From Candidatus Omnitrophota bacterium (lineage in GTDB: Bacteria > Omnitrophota > Gorgyraeia > B26-G9): a DNA stretch of 64,000 nt. The notes under the pieces were generated by a model. That model saw nothing but the letters and a program-made list of their open reading frames with translations. It was not told the DNA's origin and searched no databases. Below are positions 10,177 to 49,925 of this stretch, in pieces. The DNA is taken from assembly GCA_016213925.1 (NCBI GenBank), contig JACQZH010000007.1, positions 30,951 to 94,950 of the forward strand. The letters run 5' to 3'. A program made the translations under genes and the position numbers. How positions within the stretch are numbered: position 1 is the stretch's first letter; each line of letters opens with the position of its first letter.

Positions 10177-10266
10177 GGAGAGTTGGCAGAGCGGCCGAAT
10201 GCGGCGGTCTCGAAAACCGTTATCCGGGTAACTGGATCAGGGGTTCGAATCCTCTACTCTCCGCCA
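10177..10266 (+). tRNA. tRNA-Ser (anticodon CGA), class II with long variable arm, CCA encoded.
   Basis: Acceptor GGAGAGU/ACUCUCC, anticodon loop CUCGAAA, long variable arm, T-loop UUCGAAU, discriminator G + CCA. Confidence 0.85.
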
Positions 10267-10645: not shown

Positions 10646-11506
10646 ATGAATAAAGAAATAACCGCGACTAAAATAGCAATTTTCAGAAAACGCGAAATCC
10701 GCAGGACTATTCATAAGGATGAATGGTGGTTTTCAGTGATTGATATAGTAGAAGCGCTTACGGGCACTAATAGGGGTAGAAAATATTGGAGCGATCTTAA
10801 GAAAAAGCTTATTGAAGAAGGGTATAGTGAAGTGTCCGAAAAAATCGGACAGTTGAAAATGATAGCTCCAGCTGGGAAATTAAGGCTTACGGATTGCGCT
10901 AATACAGAAACAATGTTTCGCATAGTACAGTCTATCCCATCTCCGAAAGCCGAACCTTTTAAGCGGTGGTTGGCTCGGGTCGGTTACGAGCGAATTCAGG
11001 AAATTGAGCACCCAGAGCTTGCCACAAAAAGGACAAGGGCGTTATATAAGGCTAAAGGGTATAGCGATGAATGGATCGAGAAACGAATGCGTGGAATTGC
11101 TATCCGTGAGGAGTTAACTGAGCAGTGGCAGAAGCGCGGCATTAAAGAGAAAAAGGGATACGAAATATTGACCGCTGACATATCGAAAGCGACATTTGGC
11201 ATGACCCCATTGGCTTACAAGAAACACAAGGGGCTTAAGCGTGAAAATCTGCGGGATCACATGACTGATCTTGAACTTATCTTTTCAATGCTTGGTGAGG
11301 CATCAACGAAAGAGATCGCCATTAATAAAGATGCTCAAGGGTTTGGGGAGAACAAACAGGCGGCGTTTGAAGGCGGCGCTGTGGCTGGCAACGCAAGAAA
11401 AGAGCTTGAGCGCAAAAGCGGCAAAAGAGTTATTAGCAAAGAAAATTATAAAAGATTACCGCAGAATAAGAAGCTGTTAAGAGTGGATAGTAGTTTCGAC
11501 AAGTAG
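10646..11506 (+). CDS. Bro-N domain / DinD-like (DNA-damage-inducible protein D family, phage antirepressor-like) protein.
   Basis: N-terminal IRRTIHKDEWWFSVIDIVEAL ... YWSDL resembles the Bro-N/DinD pattern; the central KHKGLKRENLRDHMTDLEL resembles DinD. Confidence 0.55.
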   Translation: MNKEITATKIAIFRKREIRRTIHKDEWWFSVIDIVEALTGTNRGRKYWSDLKKKLIEEGYSEVSEKIGQLKMIAPAGKLRLTDCANTETMFRIVQSIPSPKAEPFKRWLARVGYERIQEIEHPELATKRTRALYKAKGYSDEWIEKRMRGIAIREELTEQWQKRGIKEKKGYEILTADISKATFGMTPLAYKKHKGLKRENLRDHMTDLELIFSMLGEASTKEIAINKDAQGFGENKQAAFEGGAVAGNARKELERKSGKRVISKENYKRLPQNKKLLRVDSSFDK

Positions 11507-13167: not shown

Positions 13168-13605
13168 GTTTGTTTTAATTGGGATTATAAAACGCGGTAT
13201 AGTTAATGATTACGGCGGCTAACAGGCAGCCGCAGGCTGTGCCGGGCTAAAAATATCTTGACAAAATTTGTAGATATTGCAGAATAATAGTAAGCATGGA
13301 AGTTGCTGTAATTTGTTGAGATTTGGCATAAGTTAAGATAAACCCGAAATTCGCAATAGAAATTATCTATCGACTAAATCCGGCCGCACGAAAAAGTGTG
13401 GGCAGATTTAGTTATTGCAAAATCCAGGATAATTATGATGATATCAGGGGATGATTTAATCATTCTCTTTTTTTTATACCCCGCGGCCTAAACACAAAAT
13501 ATTTATTGCCTTGAGTCCAAATTATGCTATATAATGCAAAGCGTGCAAAGGAAAGCAGATTTGTCCTAAAACTACTATTCAGACATAGAGACGGAGGCGG
13601 TTTCA

Positions 13606-13794
13606 ATGAATATCATAAAGCAATTAGAACTATACCGACTCGAAAACAGGATTACGCAGGTTGATTTGGCAAATGAATTAAAAGTTGCCTTTTCAACAGT
13701 CAGCCGCTGGCTCAACGGTAAAACCACGCCGAATAAGATTCAACAGTATCATATAGAAAAGTTTTTAACTCGGCATAAAAAGGATAGCAAATGA
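13606..13794 (+). CDS. XRE-family (Cro/C1-type) helix-turn-helix transcriptional regulator, 62 aa.
   Basis: ITQVDLANELKVAFSTVSRWLNG is a canonical HTH_XRE. Its stop overlaps the start of the next gene (ATGA). Confidence 0.7.
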   Translation: MNIIKQLELYRLENRITQVDLANELKVAFSTVSRWLNGKTTPNKIQQYHIEKFLTRHKKDSK

Positions 13795-15169
13795 AATTTA
13801 CAGAAAGCGAAATCGTAGAACTCAAAACATCGACATCAGAACTCAAAGAGGCGATCATTTCTTTGGGAGCCATGTTGAACAAGCATGGCAAGGGCACAGT
13901 TTATTTCGGCATCGGTGATGATGGTGCCGTTTTGGGACAACAGATCGGCAAATCAACCTTAAAAGATGTTTCAAAAGCCATCAGTGATTGGATTGAGCCT
14001 AAGATTTATCCGGATATTCAGGCCAAGAAAATACAAGGCAAGGACTGCATTGTTGTTAAAGCCAGCGGACATGATGTCGTGTATTCGGCCCGCGGCAGTA
14101 CTATCTACGTATGGGAGAGGAAGACAAGAAGCTTTCGGTAGATGAATTGAGGCATTTGGTTGAAAAGAAAAATAACTATGCCTATTCCTGGGGTGCCGAG
14201 CTTTCTGATTTTTCGCTGTCCAAGGTTAGTGCCGCGACCGTTAAGAAGTTCGTTGAGAAAGGACGCAAAGCCGGGAGGATTGAATATTCTTATGATTCGG
14301 CGCGCAATGTCCTTAATAAAATTCACCTGTTTAAAGGCAAAAAATTGCTTAACGCGGGACGGGCGCTCTTTTGTGAAGACAGCGGTGTTGAAGTTCAAGC
14401 GGCTGTCTTTGCCGGAAAAGATAAAATGACGTTCGTCGATATTCAGAGTTTTCGCGGCCCTTTTTTTGATTTGATCGAACGGTGCGAAGTTTACGCCAAA
14501 GAGCACATTAACTGGTGCGCCGATCTTTCCGGGAGCACAAGGATCGAGATTCCGGAGGTTCCTGTCCGTGCTATGAAGGAAGCCATTACAAATTCCCTCT
14601 GCCACAGGGATTTTAACAACCCCAAAAGTAATGAAGTCGCCATCTATCGAGACAGGATCGAAATTTACAACCCCGGGCAGTTTCTTTTTGACCATGATCC
14701 GGATGAGTTCATCGCAGGCCATGGGAAAAGCTATCCTAGAAATCCACTGATTGCGGAAGCTTTTTATCTGGCTAAGGATATTGAGCGGTGAGGCTCAGGG
14801 TTGCGGCGTATCAAGGAAGAATGCGATGCCGCGGGCGTGAAAGTTGCGTTTGAGAAAGTATCTGCCGGGTTTCAGGTAACGTTTTATCGGTTGGAGGGGA
14901 AAATCGTTCCTAAAGAAGCAGAGAAAAGTAGGGAGAAAAGTAGGGAGAAAAGTAGGGAGAAAAGTAGGGAGAAAAGTAGGGAGAAAAGTAGGGAGAAAAT
15001 TCTTAAGCTTGTGATCAGTAATCCGTCGATTACCGCGCAGGAGCTTGCAGACAGCGTAGGCTTGAGCGTTAAGGGGATAGAGAAGGCGATAAGAGTACTT
15101 AAAGAACAGGGTTTATTAAAACGTGTCGGGCCCGATAAGGGCGGGCATTGGGAAGTGGCAAAAGGTTAA
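13791..15169 (+). pseudogene. Schlafen/AlbA_2 + HATPase_c_4 + C-terminal winged-HTH protein ('RecG-like putative DNA-binding' family), disrupted by a frameshift near 14100-14115 and an in-frame TGA at 14789-14791.
   Basis: Three consecutive ORFs (13791-14141, 14111-14791, 14801-15169) together reconstitute the family architecture. The TGA falls in a DIER-TGA-GSGLRRI motif where family members have a conserved Trp (IERWGSG), consistent with a TGG to TGA mutation. Confidence 0.6.
14921..15000 (+). repeat. 12-bp tandem repeat (agtagggagaaa, about 6.6 copies) encoding (SREK)n in the linker before the winged-HTH.
   Basis: Perfect tandem copies read directly from the sequence. Confidence 0.9.
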
Positions 15170-15580
15170 TCATGGGAACGACAACATTTTTTCTTAGACT
15201 TAATGATTGCGCAAAGCCGTTGCACAAAATGAGCAAGAAAGAATTGGCAGAATTAAATAATGTCACCCCTTACGCTGATAAAGCTTATAAAGGGGGCTGG
15301 CTGGTTTCACCGGAATTTACACCGATCGAGTCTCTTCTGCTAAGAGCTGAACTGTTACAACGCAAGAGAGTTTCTCATCTTGAAATATCTTCCAAGCTGT
15401 TGTAAAAGCAGTTTTGAGAAAAAAGATATAATACTTTACAATTAAAACAGTTGTAAATGCGAGCGCATTCCCAAGTTGACAACTACACGTTATTATGTTG
15501 ACAATAGACACGGATTATGTTTACATTATGTTAAGAATAAGTTGACAAAAACAAAAAAGGATATTTAAGAGAGTATTGTT

Positions 15581-28071: not shown

Positions 28072-30168
28072 ATGGCGAGAATTATTGACTTAAACAAAGT
28101 GCGCAATATCGGCATAATGGCGCATATCGACGCAGGAAAAACTACGGTTACGGAACGTATCCTGTTTTATACAGGGCGTTCACATAAGATTGGAGAGGTC
28201 CATGACGGCAAAGCCCAGATGGACTGGATGAAACAAGAGCAGGAAAGAGGGATTACAATTACTTCCGCGGCAACTACTTGTTATTGGAAAAATCATCGCG
28301 TAAACATTATTGATACTCCGGGGCACGTTGATTTTACAGTGGAAGTTGAACGGTCATTGCGGGTGCTTGACGGTGCGGTTGCTGTTTTCTGCGCTGTTGG
28401 CGGCGTAGAACCGCAAAGCGAAACAGTATGGAGGCAGTCGGATAAGTATAGTGTTCCGAAGCTGGCGTTTATTAATAAAATGGACCGTATCGGTTCGGAT
28501 TTTTTCAGCGTGGTTAAAAATATAGAAGAGGAGCTGGGAGCAAATGTTATTCCGCTGCAGATACCGGTCGGCGCCGAAGATAATTTCCGGGGAATTGTTG
28601 ATCTGATGGAGATGCAGGCTTATATATATGATGATAATTCCCAGGGAAAGAATTTTCATATAGAAGAAGTACCAGAAGAGTTAAAAGAACTTGCGAAAAA
28701 ATACCATCATATTATGGTCGAGAAAGCAATCGAACTTGACGATTCTCTAATGGAAAAATATCTTGAATCAGAAGAGTCTATCAGCAAGGAAGAGCTTATG
28801 GCAGCAATCCGCAAGGGTACAATCGCCAATAAGATTGTGCCGGCATTGTGCGGGTCCGCGTTTAAAAATAAAGGGGTGCAGCAATTACTTGATGCGGTTA
28901 ATCATTATTTGCCTTCGCCGGTGGATATCGCGGCAGTAGAAGGCCATGATCCGGATAGCCCGGAGAAAAAGTTTGTCCGTAAACCACTTGACGATGAGCC
29001 TTTTTCCGCGCTGGCATTCAAGGTGCAGTCTGATCCGCACATGGGCAAACTGATATATTTCAGGGTTTATTCCGGGTCGCTTAAAGCCGGTTCGTACGTA
29101 TACAACGCGACTAAAGGCCGCAGGGAGCGCATAGGCAGAATTTTGCAGATGCACGCGAACGAACGCGAAGTAAAAGAAGATGTTTTTGCCGGAGATATTG
29201 CGGCGGCTGTCGGTTTAGACCATACTGTTACCGGAGATACTCTCTGCGATGAAGATAATCTGATTGTTCTTGAGGCAATGGAGTTTCCGGCGCCGGTAAT
29301 GGCTTTGAGCATAAAACCGCAAAGCCGCGCTGACCAGGATAAGCTGGGCAAGGGGCTGATGCGTTTGGCAGAAGAGGACCCTACTTTTACCGTAAGCTCC
29401 GATAAAGAAACCGAAGAAACGATACTTTCCGGTATGGGAGAACTTCATCTGGAGATTATTGTGGATCGTTTAAAGCACGAGTTTAATGTTGAGGCAATAG
29501 TCGGCCAGCCGAAAGTGGCGTACCGCGAAACAATTGTTAAAAGCGCGGAAGAAAATTACAAACATGTGAAACAAACCGGCGGCAAAGGCCAATATGCGCA
29601 TGTAAAAATAGAGATTTTCCCAACCGAACCAGGGCATGGTTTCGAGTTCAATAATGAGATTGTCGGCGGATCTATTCCCAAGGAATATATTCCCGCGGTA
29701 GAAAAAGGAATTATCAGCGTTATGCAAAGAGGTATCTTTGCCGGATTTCCCATTGTTGACGTGCGTGTTGATTTAATCGACGGTTCTTACCATGAAGTTG
29801 ATTCATCGGAAATGGCTTTTAAAATTGCTGCTGGAGATTGTTTTAAACGCGCGTTTATGAAAGCGGCTCCGATATTGCTTGAACCGTATATGTCGATTGA
29901 AGCGACAACTCCCGAGGAGCATGTCGGAAGCGTTGTCGGAGATATCTGTTCGCGACGGGGAAAAGTGCTGGGCATGGAAGCTAAAAATAATTTACAGATT
30001 ATTTCAGCTGAAGCGCCGCTTTCCGAGATGTTCGGGTACGCGAGCGCCTTGCGTTCTTTAACAAGCGGCAGGGCGACTTATTCGATGCATTTTGAAAAAT
30101 ATGTCGAAGTGCCGTTTGCTATATCAGAAAAGATTGTCGAGGAAAAGAAAAAAGCGTCACAAAAATGA
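28072..30168 (+). CDS. fusA: Translation elongation factor G.
   Basis: [17 protein letters not shown] and NKMD G-motifs; full five-domain length of 698 aa. Confidence 0.95.
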
Positions 30169-30674: not shown

Positions 30675-30860
30675 TAGTCAAAATTAATTTACTGCCAGAT
30701 ATTTCTTAGGAATCCGTAAAATATAACCTAATTTGACATTGCGTAATAAAAAGATGTGATTTATAATATAAGACGGAACGTTACCGAGTTTCAAAAGGAA
30801 ATATTACTCAACAAGATTAATTCGGCCAGATAAGTTATGGCCTCACTAAGGAGCGCGTAT

Positions 30861-33422
30861 ATGAGCCAAGAGTTTACCGGTAATGAAGCCCGGCAGAATG
30901 ACGGCGATTCCGGGCAGAATAAAGCGGATCAAACGCAGTGGATAAGCATAAAACGCCCGATGACAAAAGACGGGGTAATAAGCTCGTTTAAGGATAACCG
31001 CCAGTATTTTCTGGCGAAGGACCAATATTCCGCGACAAAATACGATAATTTTATGGCTATGGCCATGTCTATTCGCGATCGGCTCGTAGAACGGTGGATT
31101 CTTACCCAGCAGCGTTACCACCGGGAAAATTTAAAAAGAGTTTATTATCTTTCCATGGAGTTTTTAATCGGCCGCCTCTTGGCAAATAATATCTTAAACC
31201 TGGGGATTTGGGATGAATCGCTTCAGGCGCTTGAAGAAATTGGTTTTGATGCGGATACGCTATTAAACCAAGAACCGGACGCGGGATTGGGAAACGGCGG
31301 ATTAGGAAGGCTGGCTGCCTGTTTTCTTGATTCAATGGCAACGCTTGGAATTCCGGCGTACGGCTACGGTATAAGGTATGATTACGGGATTTTTCATCAA
31401 AAGATTATCGACGGATACCAGGTAGAATTGCCGGATGAGTGGCTTAAGCGCGGTAACCCCTGGGAATTTGCCAGGCCTGAATATACGGTCAAGGTACGTT
31501 TTTACGGGAAGACCCGCTCATTTCATGACCGCAACGGCAGATTAAGGGTTGTCTGGGCTGATACAAAAGATGTTCTTGCCGTCCCCTATGATTTTCCGGT
31601 GCCCGGATATAAAAATGATGTTGTAAATACCTTGCGCTTATGGTCAGCGCGCAGCGCAGAAGAGTTCGATTTTGAATATTTCAATGACGGGGATTATGAG
31701 CGCGCGGTGTATGACCAGGTTTTTTCAGAGAATATTTCAAAGGTGTTATATCCGAATGATATTATTATCCAGGGTAAAGAATTACGATTAAAACAGGAAT
31801 ATTTTTTTACGGCAGCCGCGATTTCGGATATTATCCGCAGGTTCAAGGCGGATAACTCTGATTTGCGCGTTTTTCCTGAAAAAGCGGTTATTCAGCTTAA
31901 TGATACTCATCCGTCTCTGGCCATTGTTGAGCTGATGCGTATTTTAATCGATGAAGAAGATATGGAATGGGACAGCGCCTGGAATATTGTATCCAGGTCA
32001 TTTGCTTATACAAACCATACAATTATGCCGGAAGCGCTGGAATCCTGGCCGGTTCCGTTGTTTGAGAAAATTTTGCCCAGGCATCTGCAATTGATTTATG
32101 AAATAAACCACCGGTTTTTAAGAGAGGTTGCCAACCGCTATCCCTGGGACCAGTTTAGGCTGGGGAGGATGTCTATAATAGAAGAAGGAGATCCTAAATA
32201 TATAAGAATGGCCTATCTTAGTATTGTCGCCAGTTATTCCATTAACGGGGTTTCTGCGCTGCATTCAAAGTTGATAAAAGAAACGCTTTTTAAGGATTTT
32301 CATGATTTATGGCCGGAAAAGTTCAATAATAAAACTAACGGAGTTACCCAGCGGCGCTGGTTAAGAAAAGCCAATACCGGCTTAGCGGGTTTGATAAGCA
32401 AAACAATTTCCGATAAATGGATAACGAACCTTAATGAACTGGAAAACCTGATGCAGCATATCGAAGACCCTTCCTTTAGAGAACAATGGCGGCAGGTTAA
32501 AGCGGAGAACAAAAAAAAGCTTTCCAATTATATCTTCCAAACACTGCATATACAGGTTAATCCAGAAGCGTTGTTTGATGTGCAGGTTAAAAGAATCCAT
32601 GAATATAAACGCCAGCTTTTGTTCGGGCTTTATATCATTTCCCAGTATTTGAAATTAAAAGATAACCCCAATGCCGGGATTCTGCCGCGGACATTTATTT
32701 TCGGCGGAAAATCAGCGCCGGGATATTTTATGGCAAAGCTGGCGATTAAATTTATCAGCCGGATTGCCGATATCATAAATAATGACAAGGGAGTAAAAGA
32801 TATTTTGCGGGTAGCTTTCCTGGAAAATTACAGTGTTTCTTTAGCGGAAAACATATTCCCTGGCAGCGATCTTTCCGAGCAGATATCAACAGCCGGAACC
32901 GAGGCGTCCGGGACGGGATGCATGAAGTTTATGCTTAACGGAGCGTTGACGATCGGTACCTTAGACGGGGCTAACATTGAAATAAAAGAAGCGGTTGGAA
33001 ATGAGAATCTTTTTATTTTCGGGTTAAGAGAATCGGAAGTGCAGGCGCTTAAACATGGAGGATATGACCCGAAACAATACATTAGCCGTTCACCGATGTT
33101 AAAAGAAGTGTTTTCTTTGATTCAGAGCCACTTCTTTTCACCGCTTGACCCGGATCTTTTTGACCCGATAATAGACAACTTGCTTCTAAAGGATCCGTTT
33201 ATGATTTGTGCGGATTTTGATTCTTACTGTCAGGCGCAGGATAGGGTTTCTTCGGAATACCGCAACTTGGATGTCTGGACAAAGAAATCGATTGTTAATA
33301 CCGCTAAGTCAGGAAAATTTTCCAGCGACCGCACAATTGCCGAATACGCCAAACAGATATGGGGCGTGCCGGTTAATCAAAAGCTTTGCGGGGAATTTTT
33401 GGGGTCGGGTCAAAACTATTGA
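30861..33422 (+). CDS. glgP: Glycogen/alpha-glucan phosphorylase. Start at 30861 preferred because of the SD AAGGAG.
   Basis: EASGTGCMKFMLNGALTIGTLDGANIE (PLP-Lys region); about 850 aa and family-typical throughout. Confidence 0.9.
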   Translation: MSQEFTGNEARQNDGDSGQNKADQTQWISIKRPMTKDGVISSFKDNRQYFLAKDQYSATKYDNFMAMAMSIRDRLVERWILTQQRYHRENLKRVYYLSMEFLIGRLLANNILNLGIWDESLQALEEIGFDADTLLNQEPDAGLGNGGLGRLAACFLDSMATLGIPAYGYGIRYDYGIFHQKIIDGYQVELPDEWLKRGNPWEFARPEYTVKVRFYGKTRSFHDRNGRLRVVWADTKDVLAVPYDFPVPGYKNDVVNTLRLWSARSAEEFDFEYFNDGDYERAVYDQVFSENISKVLYPNDIIIQGKELRLKQEYFFTAAAISDIIRRFKADNSDLRVFPEKAVIQLNDTHPSLAIVELMRILIDEEDMEWDSAWNIVSRSFAYTNHTIMPEALESWPVPLFEKILPRHLQLIYEINHRFLREVANRYPWDQFRLGRMSIIEEGDPKYIRMAYLSIVASYSINGVSALHSKLIKETLFKDFHDLWPEKFNNKTNGVTQRRWLRKANTGLAGLISKTISDKWITNLNELENLMQHIEDPSFREQWRQVKAENKKKLSNYIFQTLHIQVNPEALFDVQVKRIHEYKRQLLFGLYIISQYLKLKDNPNAGILPRTFIFGGKSAPGYFMAKLAIKFISRIADIINNDKGVKDILRVAFLENYSVSLAENIFPGSDLSEQISTAGTEASGTGCMKFMLNGALTIGTLDGANIEIKEAVGNENLFIFGLRESEVQALKHGGYDPKQYISRSPMLKEVFSLIQSHFFSPLDPDLFDPIIDNLLLKDPFMICADFDSYCQAQDRVSSEYRNLDVWTKKSIVNTAKSGKFSSDRTIAEYAKQIWGVPVNQKLCGEFLGSGQNY

Positions 33423-37998: not shown

Positions 37999-40740
37999 GT
38001 GATTATGCAGACTGTTTCCGGCGATTTTAACCCGTTAGAGAAAATTAGCGAGGCTGTTAGTTTAGGGATGGAAAAATCATCCGACGGGGATGAAGGAAAA
38101 AATTCTTTAGCTGGGTTAACTCCGATGATGAATCAGTATTTGCGCATAAAGCAGGAGCATCAGGACGCTATCCTCTTTTTCCGCCTAGGAGATTTCTATG
38201 AAATGTTTTTTGACGACGCGAAAACAGCGTCCGCAATCTTAAGCCTTACGCTTACGTCCCGTGAAGCGGGGAAGAATAACCGTGTCCCGATGTGCGGGAT
38301 TCCCTTTCATGCCGGTGAAAACTATATCAGCCGCCTTTTGGCAGCAGGCCATAAAGTCGCTATTTGCGAGCAGACAGAAGACCCTAAGCAGGCTAAAGGG
38401 ATAGTTAAGCGGGAGATTGTCCGTATCATAACTGCCGGTACAATGATCAGTCAGAATCTGCTTTCAAAAACGCACAATAATTATTTAATCAGCGTTTACC
38501 GCAAGTCTAATCAGGAATACGGGTTATCCGCGGTAGACCTTTCAACAGGAGAGTTCATGGTAACTGAACTTAAGAGCATGGAAACATTTTTAAGCGAACT
38601 TACCAGGCTTGCTCCGGCAGAAGTGCTGTTTTCGCAATCTGTCATGGCTGATGCGGTTTTTATCGATAAAATCAAACAGCGTTTTAATGCGGCGCTTAGC
38701 GCAATTGAGGATTGGACATTTGATTTTACTTATGGATATGAAAAATTAACTGCGCATTTTAAAGTAAAAAACTTAAACGGATTTGGCTGTGACAATATGC
38801 CTTTGGCAGTTAGCTCTGCTGGCGCGCTGCTAAGGTATCTGGAACAAACCCAGAAAACCCAGATAAGCCACATTACTAAATTGCAGCCGTATTCGCTGAA
38901 TAAATTTATGGTTCTTGACAGCATTGCCCAGCGGACATTAGAACTTGTGCGTTCAGTGCGTAATGATAAGAAATCGACTCTTTTGAACGAACTTGACTTT
39001 ACGCATACTCCGATGGGAGCGAGGCTTATTATTCAGTGGATCCAGCAGCCGCTTTTGGATATCGCGCAGATAAATCAGCGCTTGGATGCTGTGGCGGAAC
39101 TTTTTGATAATCAATCTCTGCGCAATACGTTAAAAGATACGTTTAAGCTGATCGTTGATATTGAAAGATTACTTAGCCGGATAAGCTTAAATGCTGCGAA
39201 TGCCAGGGATGTTTTTACTTTAAATGAGTCTTTGAAAATAATCCCGCGATTGAAAGCGCTTTTAACAGGCAAAAAAAGCCGGTTGTTGGTTGAGATTAAG
39301 GAAAACTTGGTTGATCAAGGCCGGTTATGCGAGTTTTTGGATAAGTCTGTCCGTGACGACGCGCCTTTATCCGTGCGCGAGGGAAGGATGATCCGCGAGG
39401 GAGTTAATGCCGAGCTTGATGAATTGATTAAGCTTACTAAAGGAGGCAGGGACTGGATTGCCAGGCAGCAGCAGAAAGAAATTGAACGCACCGGAATCAA
39501 TTCGCTTAAAATTAAATACAATAGCGTATTTGGTTATTATATTGAAGTGACAAAAACCAACCTGCATTTGGTTCCGGCTGATTATATCCGCAAGCAAACG
39601 CTGGTTAACGCGGAACGGTTTATTACTCCGGAACTGAAAGAGCAGGAGGAAAAAATCCTTTCCGCGCAGGAAAGAATGATTGAGCTTGAATATAAAGTGT
39701 TTATGGATATTTGCCGTAAAATTATGGACAGCCTTGAGCCTATACAGGCAAGCGCGGGAAGCATCGCGCTGCTAGATGTCTTAAACAGCTTTGCTGAAGC
39801 GGCGGCGCGCAATAGATATGCGAGGCCGCAGCTTTACAATGATTCGACAATTAATATTAAGGAAGGCCGACATCCTGTATTGGAAAATCTGCTTAGCGCG
39901 CGGAAGTTTATTCCTAATGATACAGTGCTTGATTCAAGCGGTAACCAGATATTGATTATAACCGGGCCGAATATGGCCGGTAAATCCACTTATATCCGCC
40001 AGGTTGCCTTAACCATTCTTATGGCGCAGATGGGCAGTTTTGTTCCAGCTAAGGAGGCGCATATAGGGATAGTGGACAGGATTTTTACCCGCGTAGGCGC
40101 TGCTGATGATATCAGTGCTGGTATGAGCACGTTTATGATGGAGATGAGTGAAACGGCAAATATATTGAATAACGCGACGTCAAAAAGCATGATAATCCTG
40201 GATGAAATAGGCCGCGGTACAAGTACCTTTGACGGCTTGAGCATTGCCTGGGCAACGGCTGAATTTTTGCATAATAACAAATCGGCAAAACCAAAAACTT
40301 TATTTGCCACACATTATCATGAATTAGCGGAAATGGAAATGCTATTTAACGGAATAAAAAATTATAACATTGCTGTGCGCGAGTGGAACGACGAAGTGGT
40401 GTTTCTTTATAAGCTTATGCCGGGCCAGGCGGACCATTCTTACGGTATCCATGTGGCCCGTTTAGCCGGAATGCCGAAAGAGGTTATTTCGCGCGCGCGT
40501 GAAATTTTAAGCAATCTTGAGATAAACAGCATAACGAATGACGGGATCCCCAGCCTTGTGAAATCAAGCAAAGATAAGAATAAAACAAAAGAGACACAGA
40601 AAGAATTATTCGGCCGGAAGGAAAATCCGCTTTTAAATGAAATAAAAACTTTGGATATCAGCAGGCTTAGCCCGCTTAACGCGTTAAACCTGATCAACGG
40701 CTGGCAGGAGGACTTAAAGGAGCAGGATGGGAAAGATTAA
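37999..40740 (+). CDS. mutS: DNA mismatch repair protein MutS.
   Basis: TPMMNQYLRIK, Walker A GPNMAGKST, and a C-terminal HTH region. Confidence 0.95.
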   Translation: MIMQTVSGDFNPLEKISEAVSLGMEKSSDGDEGKNSLAGLTPMMNQYLRIKQEHQDAILFFRLGDFYEMFFDDAKTASAILSLTLTSREAGKNNRVPMCGIPFHAGENYISRLLAAGHKVAICEQTEDPKQAKGIVKREIVRIITAGTMISQNLLSKTHNNYLISVYRKSNQEYGLSAVDLSTGEFMVTELKSMETFLSELTRLAPAEVLFSQSVMADAVFIDKIKQRFNAALSAIEDWTFDFTYGYEKLTAHFKVKNLNGFGCDNMPLAVSSAGALLRYLEQTQKTQISHITKLQPYSLNKFMVLDSIAQRTLELVRSVRNDKKSTLLNELDFTHTPMGARLIIQWIQQPLLDIAQINQRLDAVAELFDNQSLRNTLKDTFKLIVDIERLLSRISLNAANARDVFTLNESLKIIPRLKALLTGKKSRLLVEIKENLVDQGRLCEFLDKSVRDDAPLSVREGRMIREGVNAELDELIKLTKGGRDWIARQQQKEIERTGINSLKIKYNSVFGYYIEVTKTNLHLVPADYIRKQTLVNAERFITPELKEQEEKILSAQERMIELEYKVFMDICRKIMDSLEPIQASAGSIALLDVLNSFAEAAARNRYARPQLYNDSTINIKEGRHPVLENLLSARKFIPNDTVLDSSGNQILIITGPNMAGKSTYIRQVALTILMAQMGSFVPAKEAHIGIVDRIFTRVGAADDISAGMSTFMMEMSETANILNNATSKSMIILDEIGRGTSTFDGLSIAWATAEFLHNNKSAKPKTLFATHYHELAEMEMLFNGIKNYNIAVREWNDEVVFLYKLMPGQADHSYGIHVARLAGMPKEVISRAREILSNLEINSITNDGIPSLVKSSKDKNKTKETQKELFGRKENPLLNEIKTLDISRLSPLNALNLINGWQEDLKEQDGKD

Positions 40741-42478
40741 GATATTGGCGCAAAATTTAGCTGATAAGATTGCCGCCGGCGAAGTAGTGGAACGGCCGGC
40801 TTCTGTAGTCAAAGAACTGCTTGAGAACGCGCTGGATGCCGGCAGTACGGGCATTGAAATAATCGTGGAAAATGCTGGCTGTACTTTAATTAAAATTATC
40901 GATGACGGCCAGGGCATGGATGCGGAAGATTTGCAAAAAGCGGTACTGCGGCACGCGACAAGCAAAATAAGCGAGGAAAAAGACCTGTTTGGGATTAAAA
41001 CTCTGGGGTTTCGCGGCGAAGCTTTGGCAAGCATTGCCGCGGTAAGTTTTCTTACGATTAATTCCTGCGCTGTTAATGAAAATACCGGATGGCAGATTAG
41101 CATTGAGGGCGGCGCGGTTAAAAAATTTTCCCAAACCGCGCGGACTCAAGGCACAACGGTTGAAGTCAGGAACTTATTTTTTAATACTCCGGCCAGGCTG
41201 AAATTTTTAAAAAGCGACGCTACGGAGATGATTAATATTGTCCGTCAAGTAAGCGAATTAGCTTTAGCCTATCCGGGAGTGTCGTTTAAGCTAGTGCATA
41301 ACAGGGAAGAACTGATAAATTGCGATAGGACGGGTAATTTATTGGAACGGATCAGGGTTTTACTTCCGGAAAAAGTTACCGAGCAGCTTATTCCGGCCGA
41401 ATTTTCCGCGGCCGCTTTAAAAATCAGAGGATTTATTTCTAAAGCCGGAAGCGGTTCGCAAAACCGTAAAAACCAGTATATCTTTGTGAATAACCGCCCG
41501 GTAACCGATAAGACCGTGACGCATGCGCTGATCCAGGGGTATCATGGATTTATTATGGAGAAGCAGTTTCCCTGCGTATTTATTTTTATCAATATTCCGC
41601 TGGATATGGTGGATGTTAATGTGCATCCGAACAAGCGGGAAGTGCGTTTTCGGCAGGCAGCTGCGCTGCACGATATTATTGTAAAGGTTGTGCGGGATGT
41701 TTTGACGGATAAGAATATCCTGCCGCGTTTAGGAAAAGAAAGCGACAACGGACCGGAACAGTTAACTCAAGACGGCATATATAAAAACAATAAACCGTTT
41801 GGCGGGGGATATACGTTTATGTCAGCGCCGCAAAACTCCGGTTATGCGGCAGAAAAAACCGCGCAGCCTTTATTTTGGGGAAAAGATGATTTTTCCGCCA
41901 AAGCGCAAAGCCCGGCATTTCAACAGGCAAATAATACTTATATTATTATTCCGGATGAAAAAGGAGTTTTATTTATAGATCAGCATGCGGCGCATGAACG
42001 GATTATTTTTGATGAGATAAAAAAACAATTTGACCGAAAAAAAGTTGAAAAACAAAAATTACTACTTCCGGTTACGCTGCATCTGGACAGGGAACAAAGC
42101 CTGGTTTTGGAAGAATACAAGGACTTTTTCCAAGCGGCGGGTTTTGAGGTTGAAAATTTCGGCGAGAATACTTATATCGTCAATACTTATCCAAGCGTGC
42201 TGGATAAAGCTGATATTTCCGAACAGCTTGAAAAAATTATTTCCCAGATAGCGGAACTGGAGATCAACCCTAAGGATCAAGCGCAATTTTCCTGGTTTCT
42301 TGCTTCGGTTGCTTGTCATTGCGCTGTACGCGCAAATGAGAAATTATCCCAAGAAAAGGCTGCCGCGCTGATTTCGCGGCTGTGGCAGACAGACGCGCCT
42401 TATACCTGCCCGCACGGCCGTCCTACAATGATAAATATTACCTGGCCTGAACTGGAAAAAAGGTTTAAAAGAAAATGA
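40727..42478 (+). CDS. mutL: DNA mismatch repair protein MutL.
   Basis: GHKL N-terminus (ELLENALDAG, GFRGEAL). Overlaps the mutS stop. Confidence 0.95.
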   Translation: MGKIKILAQNLADKIAAGEVVERPASVVKELLENALDAGSTGIEIIVENAGCTLIKIIDDGQGMDAEDLQKAVLRHATSKISEEKDLFGIKTLGFRGEALASIAAVSFLTINSCAVNENTGWQISIEGGAVKKFSQTARTQGTTVEVRNLFFNTPARLKFLKSDATEMINIVRQVSELALAYPGVSFKLVHNREELINCDRTGNLLERIRVLLPEKVTEQLIPAEFSAAALKIRGFISKAGSGSQNRKNQYIFVNNRPVTDKTVTHALIQGYHGFIMEKQFPCVFIFINIPLDMVDVNVHPNKREVRFRQAAALHDIIVKVVRDVLTDKNILPRLGKESDNGPEQLTQDGIYKNNKPFGGGYTFMSAPQNSGYAAEKTAQPLFWGKDDFSAKAQSPAFQQANNTYIIIPDEKGVLFIDQHAAHERIIFDEIKKQFDRKKVEKQKLLLPVTLHLDREQSLVLEEYKDFFQAAGFEVENFGENTYIVNTYPSVLDKADISEQLEKIISQIAELEINPKDQAQFSWFLASVACHCAVRANEKLSQEKAAALISRLWQTDAPYTCPHGRPTMINITWPELEKRFKRK

Positions 42479-45229: not shown

Positions 45230-45763
45230 ATGAAAGTAAATAAAGCGGTTTTTGCCGGGATGTTGTTTGTGATGATATTATCTAATGTTGCGGGCCTAAA
45301 CGCGCAGGAAGACGCGGTTTTATATAATCATGCCAGGCAGGCGGTTTTAAGCGGGGAAATAGATTTTGCGTTCAATTATTTTTATTCGCTGCTGCAGTAT
45401 TCAGCATCGTCAAGATATTATCAAGATGCGGTTTTTGCCTGCGGAGAATATTATTTTTTAAATAATGATTACTATGTCTCCTCAAAGATGTTTACGGATT
45501 TTATTAAGGCTTGCCCGCAATCAGAAGCATTTCCTTTTGCGATTGTTTATTTGAAGAAAATGGCCGCTTCTTTAGAAGAAGCAAACGCGGCATATGATTT
45601 TAAAAAAAACATCATCAAATTTAAACAGTTAAGCCTGCTTTTTAGCGAGTTTAAGGAATATGAATATGTTTCTCCGTTAGGGTTAAAGTACAAAGCGTTA
45701 TATTATATCGACAGAGCGGAATTTTATATAAATGGGGAGCTGTTTGAAAAAGTATATTTCTAA
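45230..45763 (+). CDS. Secreted hypothetical protein.
   Basis: Signal peptide; Tyr/Phe-rich; no motif recognised. Confidence 0.45.
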   Translation: MKVNKAVFAGMLFVMILSNVAGLNAQEDAVLYNHARQAVLSGEIDFAFNYFYSLLQYSASSRYYQDAVFACGEYYFLNNDYYVSSKMFTDFIKACPQSEAFPFAIVYLKKMAASLEEANAAYDFKKNIIKFKQLSLLFSEFKEYEYVSPLGLKYKALYYIDRAEFYINGELFEKVYF

Positions 45764-47837
45764 GCATTTTTTTGTCCGAACGGCAATTGTTATTCTGCTT
45801 GCGCTGGTTATATCAGGTTATTTTTTCGTCAAGGTTTTCTTTTCGGAAAACAAAGCGAAGATAGAATATCTTTCAAGCAGTTATTTAAATAAAAAAATTT
45901 CAATAGGCAGTATTCAATATGTTTTGCCCGCATTCATTGTTATAAAAGACATCAGGATCGGCGAATTCGCAGAACAGGCTGAAGCCATCCCGCTTTCTAT
46001 AAAAAAAATCACCTTGGTTTTTTCATTAGAGAAGTTGTTTGCGGAAAAAGAATTGGTGATCAGCCGTATCGGCCTCTCCGAGCCAGAATTTGATTTGGTT
46101 AGATATCCGCTTTTTTTAAAGGAAAGCATTGCGGGATTTATTAAGTTAATAAATTTTCTTACCCAGGGCAACCCCTTAAAAATAGAATTGGAAAATGCCG
46201 CTTTTATTGCCGGCCACCGAGGGAATAAGCGCACGACGATAATAGCAAATTCAAAAATAGGCATAGGGCCGGACGACCGTTTTTCCAGCCGCGGAATAAT
46301 TAGCGTGCAGCAGGCAGGATGGAACTTTCCCGTCAAAGGGCATAAAATATTTGCGGCTTTTCAGCCTGGCACGTTTAGGTATTCTGTTTATGCTGCGGTT
46401 ATCCCCGAAGGAGTGGTTATTGAGGACATAGCGGTTGAGAAGGATAATCTACAGGCCAAATTTCAGGGCCGGCTTGAGAACAATGTGCTGCGGGTTACAG
46501 GGAATGTTTATTCAGATGATACGCCGGTAAAAACTCAAGAATGGTTAGCTCAAAAAAATAAACTTATAAGGCAGCTTTACGCATTATTTAAATATGGGAA
46601 ATTACCGCAAAAAATCGGACAAAGAGATGCCGGGGTTAACTGCACGGATATTGATTGCGTCCTCGAATTTGCGTCGCGGGCTGTAAATTTAAAAAAAGCT
46701 ACTTTTAATCTTAACGGAATCCCCGTGCTGGTAAATGGAGATTTTAATTTTCAGCAGGGCATGCAGCTTAAGGCCGTAGTTACGACTTTTCCGGAGCAGC
46801 CTTTTTTTGGCGCCGGTACTGATCCGCGCAAACTAGGGTTGGATATTTTTTTAAATGGCAAAGAGGGCAAAAGCACCGGGGACATCACGCTTGATTTTTT
46901 CAAAATGATGGGTAAAAATCTTTCGAAGCAGAAACTGCGGGCTGATTTTAATAACGCGGCTTTTGGCATTTCTCCGGATATGCGGATAAAATTGCTCTTT
47001 GATGAGGCGGTGGTTTTTTATGAATTCGATAAAAATGAGCATGTTTTTAAGCTGCGAAACTGGGAATTGTTATGTAATTTTCTTGACGAAAAACTTAAAT
47101 TCGTAAAATTCAACGCGGGAATTTTTGACGGGCTATTAAAAGGATATATTGTTGTAGATGCTTCAGAGCCCGGGTGGAAAACTAAACAGAATTTAACGGT
47201 AAAAGATGTTAACGCGAGCGAGCTGGATGCGCTGCTTTTATCTTTATTCGGCATGTACCGCACTTTACCGGGAAAATTTCAAGAAAAAATAAGCGGTAAG
47301 TTTACCTGCGATGTTAATTATACAGGGTTTCGCAGCTCAATATTAAACGGGAACCTGGAAATCAGTCAAGGTGTTTTGGAGAATATGCAGTTTTTTTTAT
47401 GGATATCCGGTTTTTTTAATATTCCTTCATTAGCCAGCGTAAGCTTTGATTCTCTTTCTGCAGATTTTCTTGTAACAGACAGGATTGCCCGGCTGGATAA
47501 CGTATGTTTGAGCGGAAAGGATATTTCGCTGAAAGGCCAGCTGGATGTTAGGGATAATGAGCTGATCAGCGGTAGGCTTGCTTTACGGCTTTCGCGCCAG
47601 ATACTTAAAGAATCATCAAAATTTCAGCTGCTTTTGGGGTTGATAAGCCATGATATAAAAGAATTTGATTTTAATTTTCAATTTTCCGGATTATATCAAT
47701 CAATAAATTTTCAATGGCTGGAATCCGAATTTAAGCACAAAGTACAAAAAATGCTTCCCGGGTTTATAGAACAGGGCTTGGAGCGAAAAGTTGAAAGTGC
47801 AATAAAAGAAATTTCCGGGCCGCTTGTTGAAAAATAA
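45732..47837 (+). CDS. Membrane-anchored AsmA-like protein (701 aa).
   Basis: N-terminal signal anchor followed by a long beta-rich region in AsmA/TamB style; low-specificity call. Confidence 0.45.
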   Translation: MGSCLKKYISKHFFVRTAIVILLALVISGYFFVKVFFSENKAKIEYLSSSYLNKKISIGSIQYVLPAFIVIKDIRIGEFAEQAEAIPLSIKKITLVFSLEKLFAEKELVISRIGLSEPEFDLVRYPLFLKESIAGFIKLINFLTQGNPLKIELENAAFIAGHRGNKRTTIIANSKIGIGPDDRFSSRGIISVQQAGWNFPVKGHKIFAAFQPGTFRYSVYAAVIPEGVVIEDIAVEKDNLQAKFQGRLENNVLRVTGNVYSDDTPVKTQEWLAQKNKLIRQLYALFKYGKLPQKIGQRDAGVNCTDIDCVLEFASRAVNLKKATFNLNGIPVLVNGDFNFQQGMQLKAVVTTFPEQPFFGAGTDPRKLGLDIFLNGKEGKSTGDITLDFFKMMGKNLSKQKLRADFNNAAFGISPDMRIKLLFDEAVVFYEFDKNEHVFKLRNWELLCNFLDEKLKFVKFNAGIFDGLLKGYIVVDASEPGWKTKQNLTVKDVNASELDALLLSLFGMYRTLPGKFQEKISGKFTCDVNYTGFRSSILNGNLEISQGVLENMQFFLWISGFFNIPSLASVSFDSLSADFLVTDRIARLDNVCLSGKDISLKGQLDVRDNELISGRLALRLSRQILKESSKFQLLLGLISHDIKEFDFNFQFSGLYQSINFQWLESEFKHKVQKMLPGFIEQGLERKVESAIKEISGPLVEK

Positions 47838-48705: not shown

Positions 48706-49671
48706 ATGCGAAATAATAAAAAAAATTTAGCAATAACGGCTTTGTCAGTATTGCTAATTTTTTTAGCAGCAAATAAAGGGTTAGGACAAATCAAAGAAGG
48801 CTGCGATAGTATTAGTACGGAGAATTACGCCAATAAAACGCTTGAATACTATTACTATATACCTGAAGCTGTGGCGGGAAATAAAAATGCTTCATATCCC
48901 TTGCTAATAATGGTTCCGGGGCTCTCCGGAAAAGGCGAGTGGTTGGTTAATAATGAAGTTAAAGAATTCGCAGAACGGGAAAAGTTTGTTGTTATCGCGC
49001 CGTCGTTTGTTTTTGATGAGAGAAACTGGGATACGCTAGAAAGCTACCACTATCCGTCAGTTTGGTCCGGCAAGGCGCTTCTTGAGATAATAAGGCAGTT
49101 TGAAGATAAAAATAATCTTTTTTTGTCGAAGTTTTGTCTTTTTGGGCACTCTGCCGGAGCGCAGTTTGTATTGCGGTTTGCGTTATGGAAACCGCAATTA
49201 TGCGAGGCTTGCGCGGCTCATGCAAGCGGAGGAAGCATAAAGCCGATAGAATATGTAAGCGTTAAATTTTTTGTTACGATAGGCAAACAGGATACTTCTT
49301 TAAGAAAAAAAGTCGCCGAAGAATTTTTTGATACTGCAAAGAAAAATATCATCAAAGTTACATATAAGGAATATGATACCGGCCATGACATGATAAAGGA
49401 GCAATTTAGCGATAGTTTGGACTTTTTCACGCAGGGTAAAATGCCTTTTAACGAAAATAGCGGAGTTTTTGAAAGTATTAATCAAAAGGCGGTTTGTGAA
49501 GGTTTTATTGGAGATACTGTGGTTTATTTAAAAAACGGATGCAAGACAGAAGGCAGGTTTAAGAGCGAAACGGATAAAAAAATTATTTTGGAAATCGCTC
49601 TCGGCAGCACAACCGGGCAAATAGCAATTTCTAAAAACCGGGTTAAATCCATAAAAAGATTAGATAAGTGA
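48706..49671 (+). CDS. Secreted alpha/beta-hydrolase (esterase/lipase) carrying the same C-terminal module of about 50 aa as the TPR protein at 42495.
   Basis: Nucleophile elbow GHSAGAQ, signal peptide, and C-terminal VVYLKNGCKTEGRFKSETD. Confidence 0.7.
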   Translation: MRNNKKNLAITALSVLLIFLAANKGLGQIKEGCDSISTENYANKTLEYYYYIPEAVAGNKNASYPLLIMVPGLSGKGEWLVNNEVKEFAEREKFVVIAPSFVFDERNWDTLESYHYPSVWSGKALLEIIRQFEDKNNLFLSKFCLFGHSAGAQFVLRFALWKPQLCEACAAHASGGSIKPIEYVSVKFFVTIGKQDTSLRKKVAEEFFDTAKKNIIKVTYKEYDTGHDMIKEQFSDSLDFFTQGKMPFNENSGVFESINQKAVCEGFIGDTVVYLKNGCKTEGRFKSETDKKIILEIALGSTTGQIAISKNRVKSIKRLDK

Positions 49672-49714
49672 TACGCTGGCATCTAAAACAATTTTGGAAG
49701 ATGGTTAGTTATTT

Positions 49715-49908
49715 ATCCCAAAATTTGCCTGTCTGCCGCCAGGCAGGCAGTAGGAATCATTTTGCGACGAAAGCTATCTGCACGAAAAAGTGCGAGCAAA
49801 TTTCGGGATTACCTCGACAAACACGAGAAAGTCTCGTCGAGATTTTCTCGGTCGACCCTACGGGCAAATTTTGCTATTGCCTGTCTGCCAGCCAGGCAAA
49901 ATTTGGGT
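49715..49908. repeat. Second locus of the palindromic element: a left half (49715-49749) and a right half (49879-49907) separated by an insert of about 125 bp that has its own hairpins.
   Basis: Direct comparison with 47894-47939. Confidence 0.7.
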
Positions 49909-49925
49909 TTATGCGGTGATTTGAT

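Follow-up and report, generated by a model that had tools for sequence, protein, structure and literature searches.

A broken copy of a common Schlafen-type gene in an Omnitrophota bacterium, probably inactivated recently, and the repeat linker of its family

The window, as we call the whole 64,000-nucleotide stretch of DNA analysed here, contains a Schlafen-type (tRNA-nuclease-like) gene of a kind common in bacteria. The copy is an ordinary one, is broken and overlaps an intact XRE-family regulator gene. We consider it probable that this Schlafen gene is a recently inactivated pseudogene of an XRE-Schlafen two-gene module, with an ancestral function of the kind proposed below and with a repeat array that grew in frame, as is normal for the family.

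Results

One gene in three pieces

The Schlafen gene is spread over three open reading frames, 13791-14141 (frame 0), 14111-14791 and 14801-15169 (both frame 2), which the GenBank annotation treats as separate proteins. On the repaired protein, Pfam matched SLFN_AlbA_2 (PF04326) at residues 5-115 (1.2e-15), HATPase_c_4 at residues 282-365 (8.3e-18) and HTH_24 at residues 399-444 (4.8e-9). Because all three domains were matched on the one repaired protein, the pieces form one gene, in line with an earlier sequence-only reading. That reading had described a single AlbA_2/HATPase_c_4/wHTH gene interrupted by a frameshift and by a TGA, and had named a profile alignment showing pieces of different families as a result that would speak against it. 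The motif Ex4(E/D)xK that defines prokaryotic Schlafens (pSlfns; PMC13056530) appears in the window as E5-SEIV-E10-L-K12; alignment A1 shows no variation at E5, E7, E10 or K12, and the catalytic motif residues are invariant in 62 homologues. The fold of one homologue, P0001, matches 3LMM, SLFN5/11/12/13/14 and the SAMD9 tRNase, and also histidine-kinase catalytic domains and the PefI wHTH. By its domains, and with a frame that is interrupted, the window gene is a pseudogene of the class pSlfn-HisKinase-HTH, which is the commonest HTH-bearing Schlafen architecture of bacteria and archaea; HisKinase-HTH fusions make up 19.2% of 5,930 pSlfns, about 1,100 genes (PMC13056530, Nat Microbiol 2026).

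Table 1. Features of the XRE-Schlafen locus (window coordinates).
Feature	Position	Strand	Evidence
Promoter-like site TTGCCT-18-TATAAT, 5' of the XRE gene	13506..13535	+	Consensus scan; predicted function
XRE-family HTH gene, intact, 62 aa	13606..13794	+	Pfam HTH_3 1.9e-7; GenBank MBI4845059.1
Pseudogene pSlfn (AlbA_2) - HisKinase-like (HATPase_c_4) - repeat linker - wHTH; 459 aa when repaired	13791..15169	+	
Predicted Schlafen nuclease motif E5-x4-E10-x-K12 (ESEIVELK), unbroken	13803..13826	+	Sequence
Frameshift site GGC AG^TAC, Arg103 codon 1 base short	14094..14101	+	DNA alignments
Missense R243C (CGC->TGC), window-specific	14516..14518	+	Arg in 106/110 homologues
Missense P299L (CCT->CTT), window-specific	14684..14686	+	Pro in 109/110 homologues
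In-frame TGA at invariant Trp334 (TGG), in DIERWGSG, within HATPase_c_4	14789..14791	+	
Perfect tandem array, unit GAGAAAAGTAGG, 6.6 copies, coding for (EKSR/SREK)n	14921..14999	+	TRF
C-terminal wHTH module, residues 399-444 of the repaired protein	14984..15121	+	Pfam HTH_24 4.8e-9
77-aa ORF 3' of the pseudogene	15172..15405	+	tblastn, weak

The 979 homologues that we collected measure 443-460 aa at full length and are up to 83% identical. Two relatives are especially informative: L090, an intact orthologue (89% identical) that carries the same wHTH module as the window, and L091, whose DNA is 92% identical to the window copy and intact at the frameshift site. Upstream, DNA similarity to a further relative, L010, starts at 13495 (blastn), and the XRE protein shares 59 of its 62 residues with that of L010. 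The codon differences between the two (12 synonymous, 3 non-synonymous) indicate a gene under constraint. The XRE stop overlaps the Schlafen start by 4 nt (ATGA), an overlap kept in the window, L001-4, L009 and L010 and modified in L091. The coupling that the sequence-only reading had seen is real, but it is limited to this closest subclade; L090 and the roughly 70 remaining family loci lack the pairing. Measured against what is expected of a type II toxin-antitoxin system, namely a small overlapping upstream HTH gene in a conserved pairing, the pairing is kept in the closest subclade only.

Downstream, the first 48 residues of the 77-aa ORF are 54% identical to a 126-131-aa gene that follows the intact homologue in L001-4, after which the two diverge (tblastn); by this comparison the ORF, which ends early, looks like a shortened relative of that gene. 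A Bro-N protein 2.3 kb upstream of the locus (10646-11506) matches the PADLOC candidate PDC-S13 (3e-117), and the relatives L001 and L090 have restriction-modification genes next to them. In the segment of the window that we examined, no established defence system turned up. The 3' end of tRNA-Ser has no direct repeat that we could find, so the boundaries of an island could not be defined.

Two lesions unique to the window copy

The first lesion lies at 14097/98, where relatives read GGN CGR TAY (Gly-Arg-Tyr) and the window has lost one base. The sequence-only reading had recognised the frameshift and placed it at 14100-14115; alignment with relatives moves it slightly upstream. Arg103 is kept in 110 of 110 homologues. 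Past the deletion, the upstream frame meets a stop at 14139-14141, after 116 aa. The site contains neither a homopolymer nor a slippery heptamer. The second lesion, in the context ...KDIER*GSGLRRIKEECD, replaces a tryptophan that had been singled out earlier as conserved and that is indeed present in all 110 homologues, as TGG in each of the 74 aligned tblastn family hits; D330, E332, S336 and G337 around it are likewise invariant. Relatives are intact at both sites, and both lesions are unique to the window copy. A scan of metagenomes found no other contig or independent assembly with the TGA allele.

Recent decay is more likely than assembly error

The sequence-only reading had left a choice between recent inactivation and assembly error, and our tests favour inactivation: real recent decay is the more likely of the two. 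Pairwise dN/dS of 0.045-0.095 points to purifying selection through most of the gene's history. Singleton changes (synonymous to non-synonymous) are 16:13 in the window copy versus 76:15 pooled from four relatives (Fisher p=0.004) and 26:4 in the nearest relative, L001 (p=0.01), an excess of amino-acid changes that is modest and drawn from small counts, by which constraint on the terminal branch of the window copy looks relaxed. The gene is a mosaic, nearest to L001 in codons 1-100 and to L090 at its C-terminus, which blurs the definition of that branch. R243C and P299L alter residues that at least 96% of homologues share; counted over all columns with conservation of at least 95%, missense hits number 2 in the window copy versus 0-1 in close relatives, a weak difference.

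We estimate it as unlikely that the organism has an intact gene and that errors, or variants of a minority strain, fixed in the MAG consensus account for the deletion and the TGA. The window is a single such consensus from one assembly, a MAG with locus tags HY810_* and proteins MBI4845059-64; that the TGA allele occurs on no other contig, that every relative is intact at both sites and that GenBank simply lists the pieces as separate proteins would all fit such errors. Against them, two independent lesions of differing kind fall within one 1.4-kb gene, and no other gene in the 64 kb appears split. By our arithmetic, the chance that two random errors would both land in the Schlafen gene is about 0.025, given roughly 54 kb of ORF sequence. 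The deletion lies outside any homopolymer, and the lineage-specific changes at conserved residues, together with the non-synonymous excess, come on top of the two lesions. Natural decay is also common in the Schlafen family: at roughly one in ten species-level loci the gene is broken by an IS element, a frameshift or a stop (L005-8, L019, L023, L029, L054, L055, L061, L063 and L087).

Elsewhere in the window, the other long ORFs are uninterrupted (986, 913, 861, 808, 791, 701 and 698 aa). A possible frameshift between 45230-45763 and 45732-47837 proved unsupported, the only match of the 701-aa protein being itself.

Recoding is effectively refuted

Decoding of UGA by tRNA-Trp is the commonest natural read-through, and the TGA falls exactly at a Trp codon. 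The gene might on this ground be expressed by recoding, with UGA read as Trp (by read-through or under code 4) and a ribosomal frameshift at 14097. Code 25, another UGA reassignment, gives Gly. The absence of TGA from the Trp334 codon in the 74 relatives and the lack of a slippery sequence at the frameshift effectively refute this, and we give it hardly any weight. The shift site GGCAGTAC offers neither an X XXY YYZ heptamer nor a homopolymer, the frame is unshifted in every relative, and read-through and frameshifting would both be required in one translation. Low-level UGA read-through, proposed earlier as a way to restore the Trp, would leave the gene broken all the same, since the frameshift precedes the TGA by 690 nt and has no slippery site.

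TGA is the terminator of many real genes in the window (for example 28072-30168, 30837-33422 and 40727-42478), which shows that the standard code is in use. Of the 45 ORFs of at least 150 aa, 12 end in TGA, and reading through these terminal TGAs adds a few codons only. The only other same-frame TGA junction, at 49917, is not a split gene: the candidate pair 49668-49919 and 49926-51179 resolves into an MFS transporter starting at 49926 and a spurious ORF upstream. Global UGA reassignment, judged unlikely from the start, is excluded by these terminators and by the lack of any other TGA-split gene. As to selenocysteine at the TGA, a Trp-to-Sec change is implausible, and an Rfam scan passed only tRNA-Ser above threshold.

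A repeat linker shared by the family and an exchangeable wHTH

TRF scores the array in the linker before the wHTH at 158 (period 12, 6.6 copies, 100% matches) and finds no second strong tandem repeat anywhere in the window. The array agrees with the perfect 12-bp, SREK-encoding copies described from the letters alone. The linker is disordered in the model of homologue P0001 (pLDDT <50). The intact orthologue L090 has an identical unit in 3.6 copies versus 6.6 in the window, so the comparison of copy number suggested earlier does reveal variation by whole units. The array is, however, not a symptom of decay, because nearly every family member has one at the matching place: among 75 unique full-length family genes, which span 28-89% protein identity and many phyla, 73 carry a short tandem array there. 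Period 12 accounts for 63 of these 73 arrays, 32 of the 63 are perfect in DNA, and the window array is the second-longest of the 63. Codon choice is skewed in the arrays compared with the rest of the genes (AAA 81% vs 58%, GAG 63% vs 39%, CAG 94% vs 56%). Since the 12-nt unit is in frame, the array cannot switch the gene off; we accordingly rejected a phase-variable contingency gene, the unit lying inside the coding region and its copy number altering linker length only.

The wHTH module behind the linker appears, from these comparisons, to be shuffled independently of the core. The window wHTH DNA is 92.5% identical to that of L090 versus 41-62% to that of the relatives with the most similar core, and core identity and wHTH identity are nearly uncorrelated (r=0.29), which supports a swappable module. 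In several relatives a 3' fragment stands beside the full gene and comprises the end of the preceding domain plus the repeat linker and wHTH; in L042 this orphan fragment and the full gene have identical sequence downstream. When used alone as a query, the wHTH module retrieved short fragments only, and public assemblies contain many gene calls for short linker-wHTH products that stand alone. We tentatively suggest, as a possibility that we hold to be clearly short of even, that the 12-bp array is maintained across the family as a slippage and recombination hotspot that would tune linker length and permit wHTH swaps between lineages, leaving orphan 3' fragments behind. In the literature that we searched, the repeat linker is not described, which does not prove that no description exists.

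Discussion

Proposed function and fate

Prokaryotic Schlafens have recently been shown to be antiviral tRNases; tRNA cleavage and phage defence are known only from relatives whose fused domains are of other kinds (PMC13056530). By analogy, the intact ancestor of the window locus would have comprised an XRE-type HTH regulator translationally coupled to a Schlafen protein whose Schlafen/AlbA_2 domain (E5x4E10xK12) may have cut RNA, most likely tRNA, in a metal-dependent manner and, once triggered, arrested growth. Regulation or sensing would have fallen to the GHKL/HisKinase-like domain and the wHTH, held on a flexible tetrapeptide-repeat linker, and the XRE protein would have kept transcription low. 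The 1-nt deletion in codon 103 would then have stopped the frame after 116 aa, and TGG->TGA would have removed Trp334 of DIERWGSG. Several amino-acid changes at conserved positions would have accompanied them, with the XRE gene remaining intact. The growth of the linker array to 6.6 units would reflect in-frame slippage, normal for the family and not the cause of inactivation.

Fragments of the gene might still act, either the 116-aa N-terminal product as a free Schlafen domain or the 122-aa linker-wHTH re-initiated at TTG 14801, which lies 10 nt past the TGA behind a GGTGAGG-like sequence. The nuclease motif (residues 5-12) is unbroken, the stand-alone linker-wHTH products of public assemblies offer a parallel, and the isolated AlbA_2 domain of Avs9 is toxic in E. 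coli (PMC12680541). We nevertheless regard activity of the fragments as very improbable: the frameshift deletes what are, in the model, the last two AlbA_2 strands (E105-108 and E111-114) and puts 14 unrelated residues in their place, and the short wHTH products found elsewhere still bear the tail end of a preceding domain and so look like gene remnants.

As an inactivated gene, the window locus is of little import in itself; it adds one more case of how quickly Schlafen-type genes, defence-like and probably costly, turn over. At the level of the family, the repeat linker and the exchanged wHTH could matter more. A conserved repeat linker next to a freely exchanged wHTH suggests that the wHTH may be a fast-evolving part that determines specificity, and linker length and wHTH swaps offer a concrete experimental handle on the HisKinase-HTH part of one of the commonest architectures.

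Comparison with known systems

Rhs/CDI polymorphic toxin loci have displaced orphan C-terminal modules, to which the 3' fragments of the Schlafen relatives can be likened. The resemblance is one of pattern only; the part swapped in Rhs/CDI loci is a toxin accompanied by an immunity gene, whereas in the Schlafen family it is a DNA-binding wHTH with no immunity gene. DIP2311 of Corynebacterium diphtheriae (PDB 3LMM; 583 residues, no known function) is the best match by both sequence (phmmer 2e-4) and fold (Foldseek 2.5e-22), covering the AlbA_2 and HATPase_c_4 parts at an identity of only 15-16%. With the AlbA_2 tRNases RorSlfn5, human SLFN11/13 and SAMD9, the family has the N-terminal fold and the acidic catalytic motif in common; their other fused domains differ (Ig-like, helicase, STAND), and the likeness is confined to the nuclease domain.

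In architecture, the gene can be likened to TrlG of the Photorhabdus temperature-restriction locus, an AlbA_2 + HATPase_c_4 protein annotated 'RecG-like' whose operon also encodes a small transcription factor; it arrests growth when induced and is readily lost via SNPs, stop codons or IS30 insertion (bioRxiv 10.1101/2020.06.02.129163). The TRL operon adds a third gene, trlF (PHP phosphatase), and its organism and its trigger, temperature, are unrelated to the window locus.

The closest comparison is with pSlfn-HisKinase-HTH proteins themselves (PMC13056530). That study does not mention a tandem-repeat linker, XRE coupling or pseudogenes; in E. coli, defence was conferred by two pSlfns, one a DUF262 fusion and the other an Ig-like fusion, and not by the HisKinase fusions tested. 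The window gene shares the domain order of the class, from a Slfn/AlbA_2 domain with Ex4(E/D)xK through the HisKinase-like domain to the C-terminal HTH. Proteins of the class are found near defence-type genes; for the window copy, the candidate PDC-S13 lies 2.3 kb upstream. What sets the window copy apart is its interruption by a frameshift and a nonsense codon.

One gene in three pieces

The sequence-only reading had taken the three ORFs of the Schlafen locus for fragments of a single AlbA_2/HATPase_c_4/wHTH gene, and our profile searches agree. When the protein was searched against Pfam with its frame repaired and the TGA taken as Trp, the frame change fell inside the AlbA_2 match and the TGA inside that to HATPase_c_4, so that the three pieces make up one gene. 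The second and third pieces are parted solely by the TGA at 14789-14791 (context KDIER*GSGLRRIKEECD). In GenBank (locus tags HY810_*) the pieces are deposited as separate proteins: MBI4845060.1 is a 116-aa piece and MBI4845061.1 a 226-aa piece, next to MBI4845059.1, the XRE protein.

Features of the Schlafen locus and of related loci (L numbers)
Feature	Position	Strand	Remarks
tRNA-Ser gene	10177-10266		
Bro-N protein	10646-11506		PADLOC candidate defence family PDC-S13, 3e-117; directly after tRNA-Ser
426-aa membrane protein			neighbour of Schlafen locus
Promoter-like site	13506-13535		upstream of XRE gene
XRE-type HTH ORF, 62 aa	13606-13794	+	upstream of Schlafen gene
ORF piece 1	13791-14141	+	frame 0
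ORF piece 2	14111-14791	+	frame 2
ORF piece 3	14801-15169	+	frame 2
SLFN_AlbA_2	residues 5-115, repaired protein		Pfam 1.2e-15
HATPase_c_4	residues 282-365, repaired protein		Pfam 8.3e-18
wHTH (HTH_24)	residues 399-444, repaired protein		Pfam 4.8e-9
Tandem array	14921-14999		unit GAGAAAAGTAGG; 6.6 copies, 100% matches, Tandem Repeats Finder
77-aa ORF	15172-15405		first 48 residues 54% identical to 126-131-aa protein of L001-4
HTH-HATPase_c_2-DUF4325 protein, 355 aa	15581-16648		just downstream of broken Schlafen gene
Decayed homologue, example	L005 4531-6918		
Orphan 3' fragment	L042 2441-2746		
Orphan 3' fragment	L045 5553-5756		
Orphan 3' fragment	L051 2974-3078		
Orphan 3' fragment	L053 1109-1402		
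Orphan 3' fragment	L059 5458-6132		
Orphan 3' fragment	L078 2935-3429		
Orphan 3' fragment	L086 2502-2822	minus	

Both predicted lesions were located on residues present in 110/110 full-length homologues, Arg103 and Trp334. At the frameshift site, the relatives L001, L005, L009, L010, L091 and L092 read GGN CGR TAY in DNA (...VYSARGRYYLRMGEEDKK... in protein), whereas the window reads GGC AG^TAC; one base is thus missing at 14097/98, in the Arg103 codon, which possibly also underwent a CGG-to-CAG change. The TGA replaces Trp334 within the invariant D330-x-E332-x-W334-x-S336-G337 of the HisKinase-like domain. The tblastn alignments over 88 related loci place TGG opposite Trp334 in 74 hits and TGA in none, and a contig search found no other contig carrying the TGA allele. 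A degenerate DNA pattern of the window's wHTH module retrieved L090 and L089 from JGI metagenomes; L090 encodes an intact orthologue (446 aa, 89% protein identity; 92.5% DNA identity in the wHTH module) whose Trp334 codon is TGG and whose sequence over the frameshift site is GRYYLRMG. That site is also intact in L091, a 664-nt ENA contig that covers XRE and the N-terminal part at 92.4% DNA identity.

UGA reassignment, designed read-through and programmed frameshifting are ruled out because TGA ends real genes here, no aligned relative has TGA at Trp334 and the shift site is not slippery. The window has 45 ORFs of 150 aa or more, whose stop codons are TAA (25), TGA (12) and TAG (8), in keeping with earlier doubts about global reassignment. 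TGA terminates many real long ORFs, which read-through would lengthen by a few codons; within the window, it joins pieces of one gene at the Schlafen locus only. The frame-change site (GGCAGTAC) holds no homopolymer and no slippery heptamer and is unshifted in every relative. The idea that low-level UGA read-through restores the Trp fails at the level of the protein: with a frameshift 690 nt upstream, chance read-through would not rescue it.

Two further candidate split genes were rejected. At the same-frame TGA junction at 49917, an MFS transporter with a full-length profile match begins at 49926, and the 83-aa ORF upstream of it has no match. For a frameshift joining the 177-aa ORF at 45230-45763 to the ORF at 45732-47837, the 32-nt overlap gave no support. 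The latter ORF encodes a 701-aa protein without a Pfam match and is apparently an orphan, since a search of 5.8 billion proteins matched it only to its own record, MBI4845093.1.

Inactivation versus assembly error

The sequence-only reading left open recent inactivation or an assembly error. Judged by indirect tests on comparative sequence data, the gene has probably been inactivated, truly and recently. Pairwise dN/dS against the five computable relatives is 0.045-0.095, indicating purifying selection through most of the gene's history. In a set of five close sequences, the window's private changes are 16 synonymous and 13 non-synonymous, against 76 and 15 in the other four pooled (Fisher p=0.004) and 26 and 4 in the nearest relative, L001 (p=0.01), all of these being small counts. 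Of these private changes, R243C hits a position that is Arg in 106/110 homologues and P299L one that is Pro in 109/110; L225F and P368L are further examples. A simpler count, restricted to alignment columns with 95% or more conservation among homologues, shows a weak difference, with 2 changes in the window versus 0-1 in close relatives. The gene is also a mosaic, which blurs its terminal branch: codons 1-100 match L001 at 95% DNA identity, the C-terminus being related to L090 alone.

That both lesions are assembly or consensus errors is unlikely, given this non-synonymous excess and the changes at near-invariant residues. Moreover, the deletion lies outside any homopolymer, and two lesions of different kinds sit inside one 1.4-kb gene, whereas some 54 kb of other ORF sequence contains no split gene. 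By our own arithmetic, two random errors would both land in the Schlafen gene with a chance of about 0.025.

Decay is common in the family, affecting roughly 1 in 10 loci, some of which may be MAG errors. The L005-8 homologue (81% identity) of a groundwater Omnitrophica lineage is an independent case, present in several assemblies: IS3-type (IS3-family) transposase genes stand directly upstream, its first 23 residues are unaligned, and it has two in-frame stops, TGA and TAG. Elsewhere the gene is split by a 1.7-kb insertion (L023), changes frame (L054, L055, L061, L063) or has internal stops (L019, L029, L087). Several genomes carry two to four tandem paralogues (L050, L015, L058, L071, L073, L074), with four family copies in 5 kb in L050.

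The ordinary explanation of the window locus is that a member of a widespread, known family was inactivated recently and its regulator gene stayed intact. The locus itself is of low interest; only the repeat linker and the shuffling of the wHTH might repay more work.

The repeat linker and exchange of the wHTH module

The array in the linker is the sole strong one that Tandem Repeats Finder detected in the whole window. Copy number, which the sequence-only reading had proposed comparing elsewhere, is 3.6 in L090 versus 6.6 in the window for an identical unit, so whole units have been gained or lost. The proposed (SREK)n slippage substrate therefore does vary; its link to decay does not hold, because the array is family-wide and in-frame, and a unit of four codons leaves slippage unable to switch the gene off. 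A short tandem array occurs in 73 of 75 unique full-length genes (28-89% identity, from many bacterial and archaeal phyla), at relative position 0.78-0.84, before the wHTH; it is a hallmark of the Schlafen-HisKinase-wHTH family. The period is 12 in 63 arrays, 32 of them DNA-perfect; copy number has a median of 3.5 and peaks at 9.1. The arrays encode tetrapeptide repeats such as TTQK, TVEK, TREK, SEKS and EGVS, with codons skewed toward (G/C)AG AAA compared with the parts of these genes outside the arrays (AAA 81% vs 58%, GAG 63% vs 39%, CAG 94% vs 56%, the units of one array not being independent observations).

Identities to the window in the core and in the wHTH module are nearly uncorrelated (r=0.29). 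When L009, L010 and L011 were contrasted with L064-L070, against window 13791-15169, relatives with cores 91-92% identical had wHTH modules 38-45% identical, whereas relatives with cores 27% identical had modules more than 60% identical. This uncoupling indicates that the wHTH module has moved between lineages separately from the core, the exchange junction being the linker. In the literature searched, we found no description of the repeat linker or of wHTH exchange. Seven loci carry an extra 3' fragment (tail of the preceding domain, repeat linker and wHTH) 1-2 kb or less from a full-length family gene, and public assemblies list many comparable short products. In L042, the sequence downstream of the fragment is that of the full gene, which suggests that the fragment is an older 3' end that was displaced. 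The repeat may itself promote exchange, or a junction at the domain boundary may simply be what selection tolerates.

The XRE gene and its neighbourhood

Coupling to an XRE regulator, as first proposed, holds for part of the family. The XRE stop overlaps the Schlafen start by 4 nt (ATGA) in the window, L001-4, L009 and L010 only; the pairing is absent in L090 and the remaining family loci. In L091 (52-264 and 237-662) the overlap is altered to ATGG, the XRE stop is lost and the protein gains 8 residues (70 aa vs 62). The 70-aa form also occurs in several ENA contigs. The XRE proteins of the window and L010 are identical at 59/62 positions, and 12 synonymous versus 3 non-synonymous differences indicate that the window's XRE gene is still constrained. 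Similarity to L010 starts at 13495.

Downstream, the 77-aa ORF looks like a shortened form of the 126-131-aa gene found after the intact L001-4 homologue; as it diverges past residue 48 and stops early, it may be decaying too. The 355-aa protein combines an N-terminal HTH, HATPase_c_2 (anti-sigma-kinase-like) and STAS-like DUF4325; against PADLOC it gave nothing convincing, with weak matches to the HTH region only. Restriction-modification genes adjoin relatives' loci. We found no direct repeat of the tRNA-Ser end with which to draw an island boundary.

Relation to known Schlafen systems

A protein search returned 979 homologues, the full-length members being 443-460 aa long and at most 83% identical. 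The AlphaFold model (mean pLDDT 87) of P0001, the closest full-length match, has three folded parts and a disordered linker (residues 373-396). Its best Foldseek match in the PDB is DIP2311 (3LMM, 2.5e-22); the N-terminal part matches the N-domains of Schlafen 5/11/12/13/14 and the tRNase domain of SAMD9, the middle part histidine-kinase catalytic domains, and the C-terminus a PefI-like wHTH. The family matches the 'HisKinase-HTH' architecture, which accounts for 19.2% of 5,930 prokaryotic Schlafens, whose catalytic motif is Ex4(E/D)xK (PMC13056530). The window retains E5-x4-E10-x-K12, residues invariant across the family. In bacteria, AlbA_2 domains show a statistical association with defence islands, and that of Avs9 is toxic (PMC12680541). 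Photorhabdus TrlG shares the architecture of the window gene and has a small transcription factor as its operon partner; its induction leads to growth arrest, and it is lost spontaneously through SNPs, stop codons and IS30 insertion (bioRxiv 10.1101/2020.06.02.129163).
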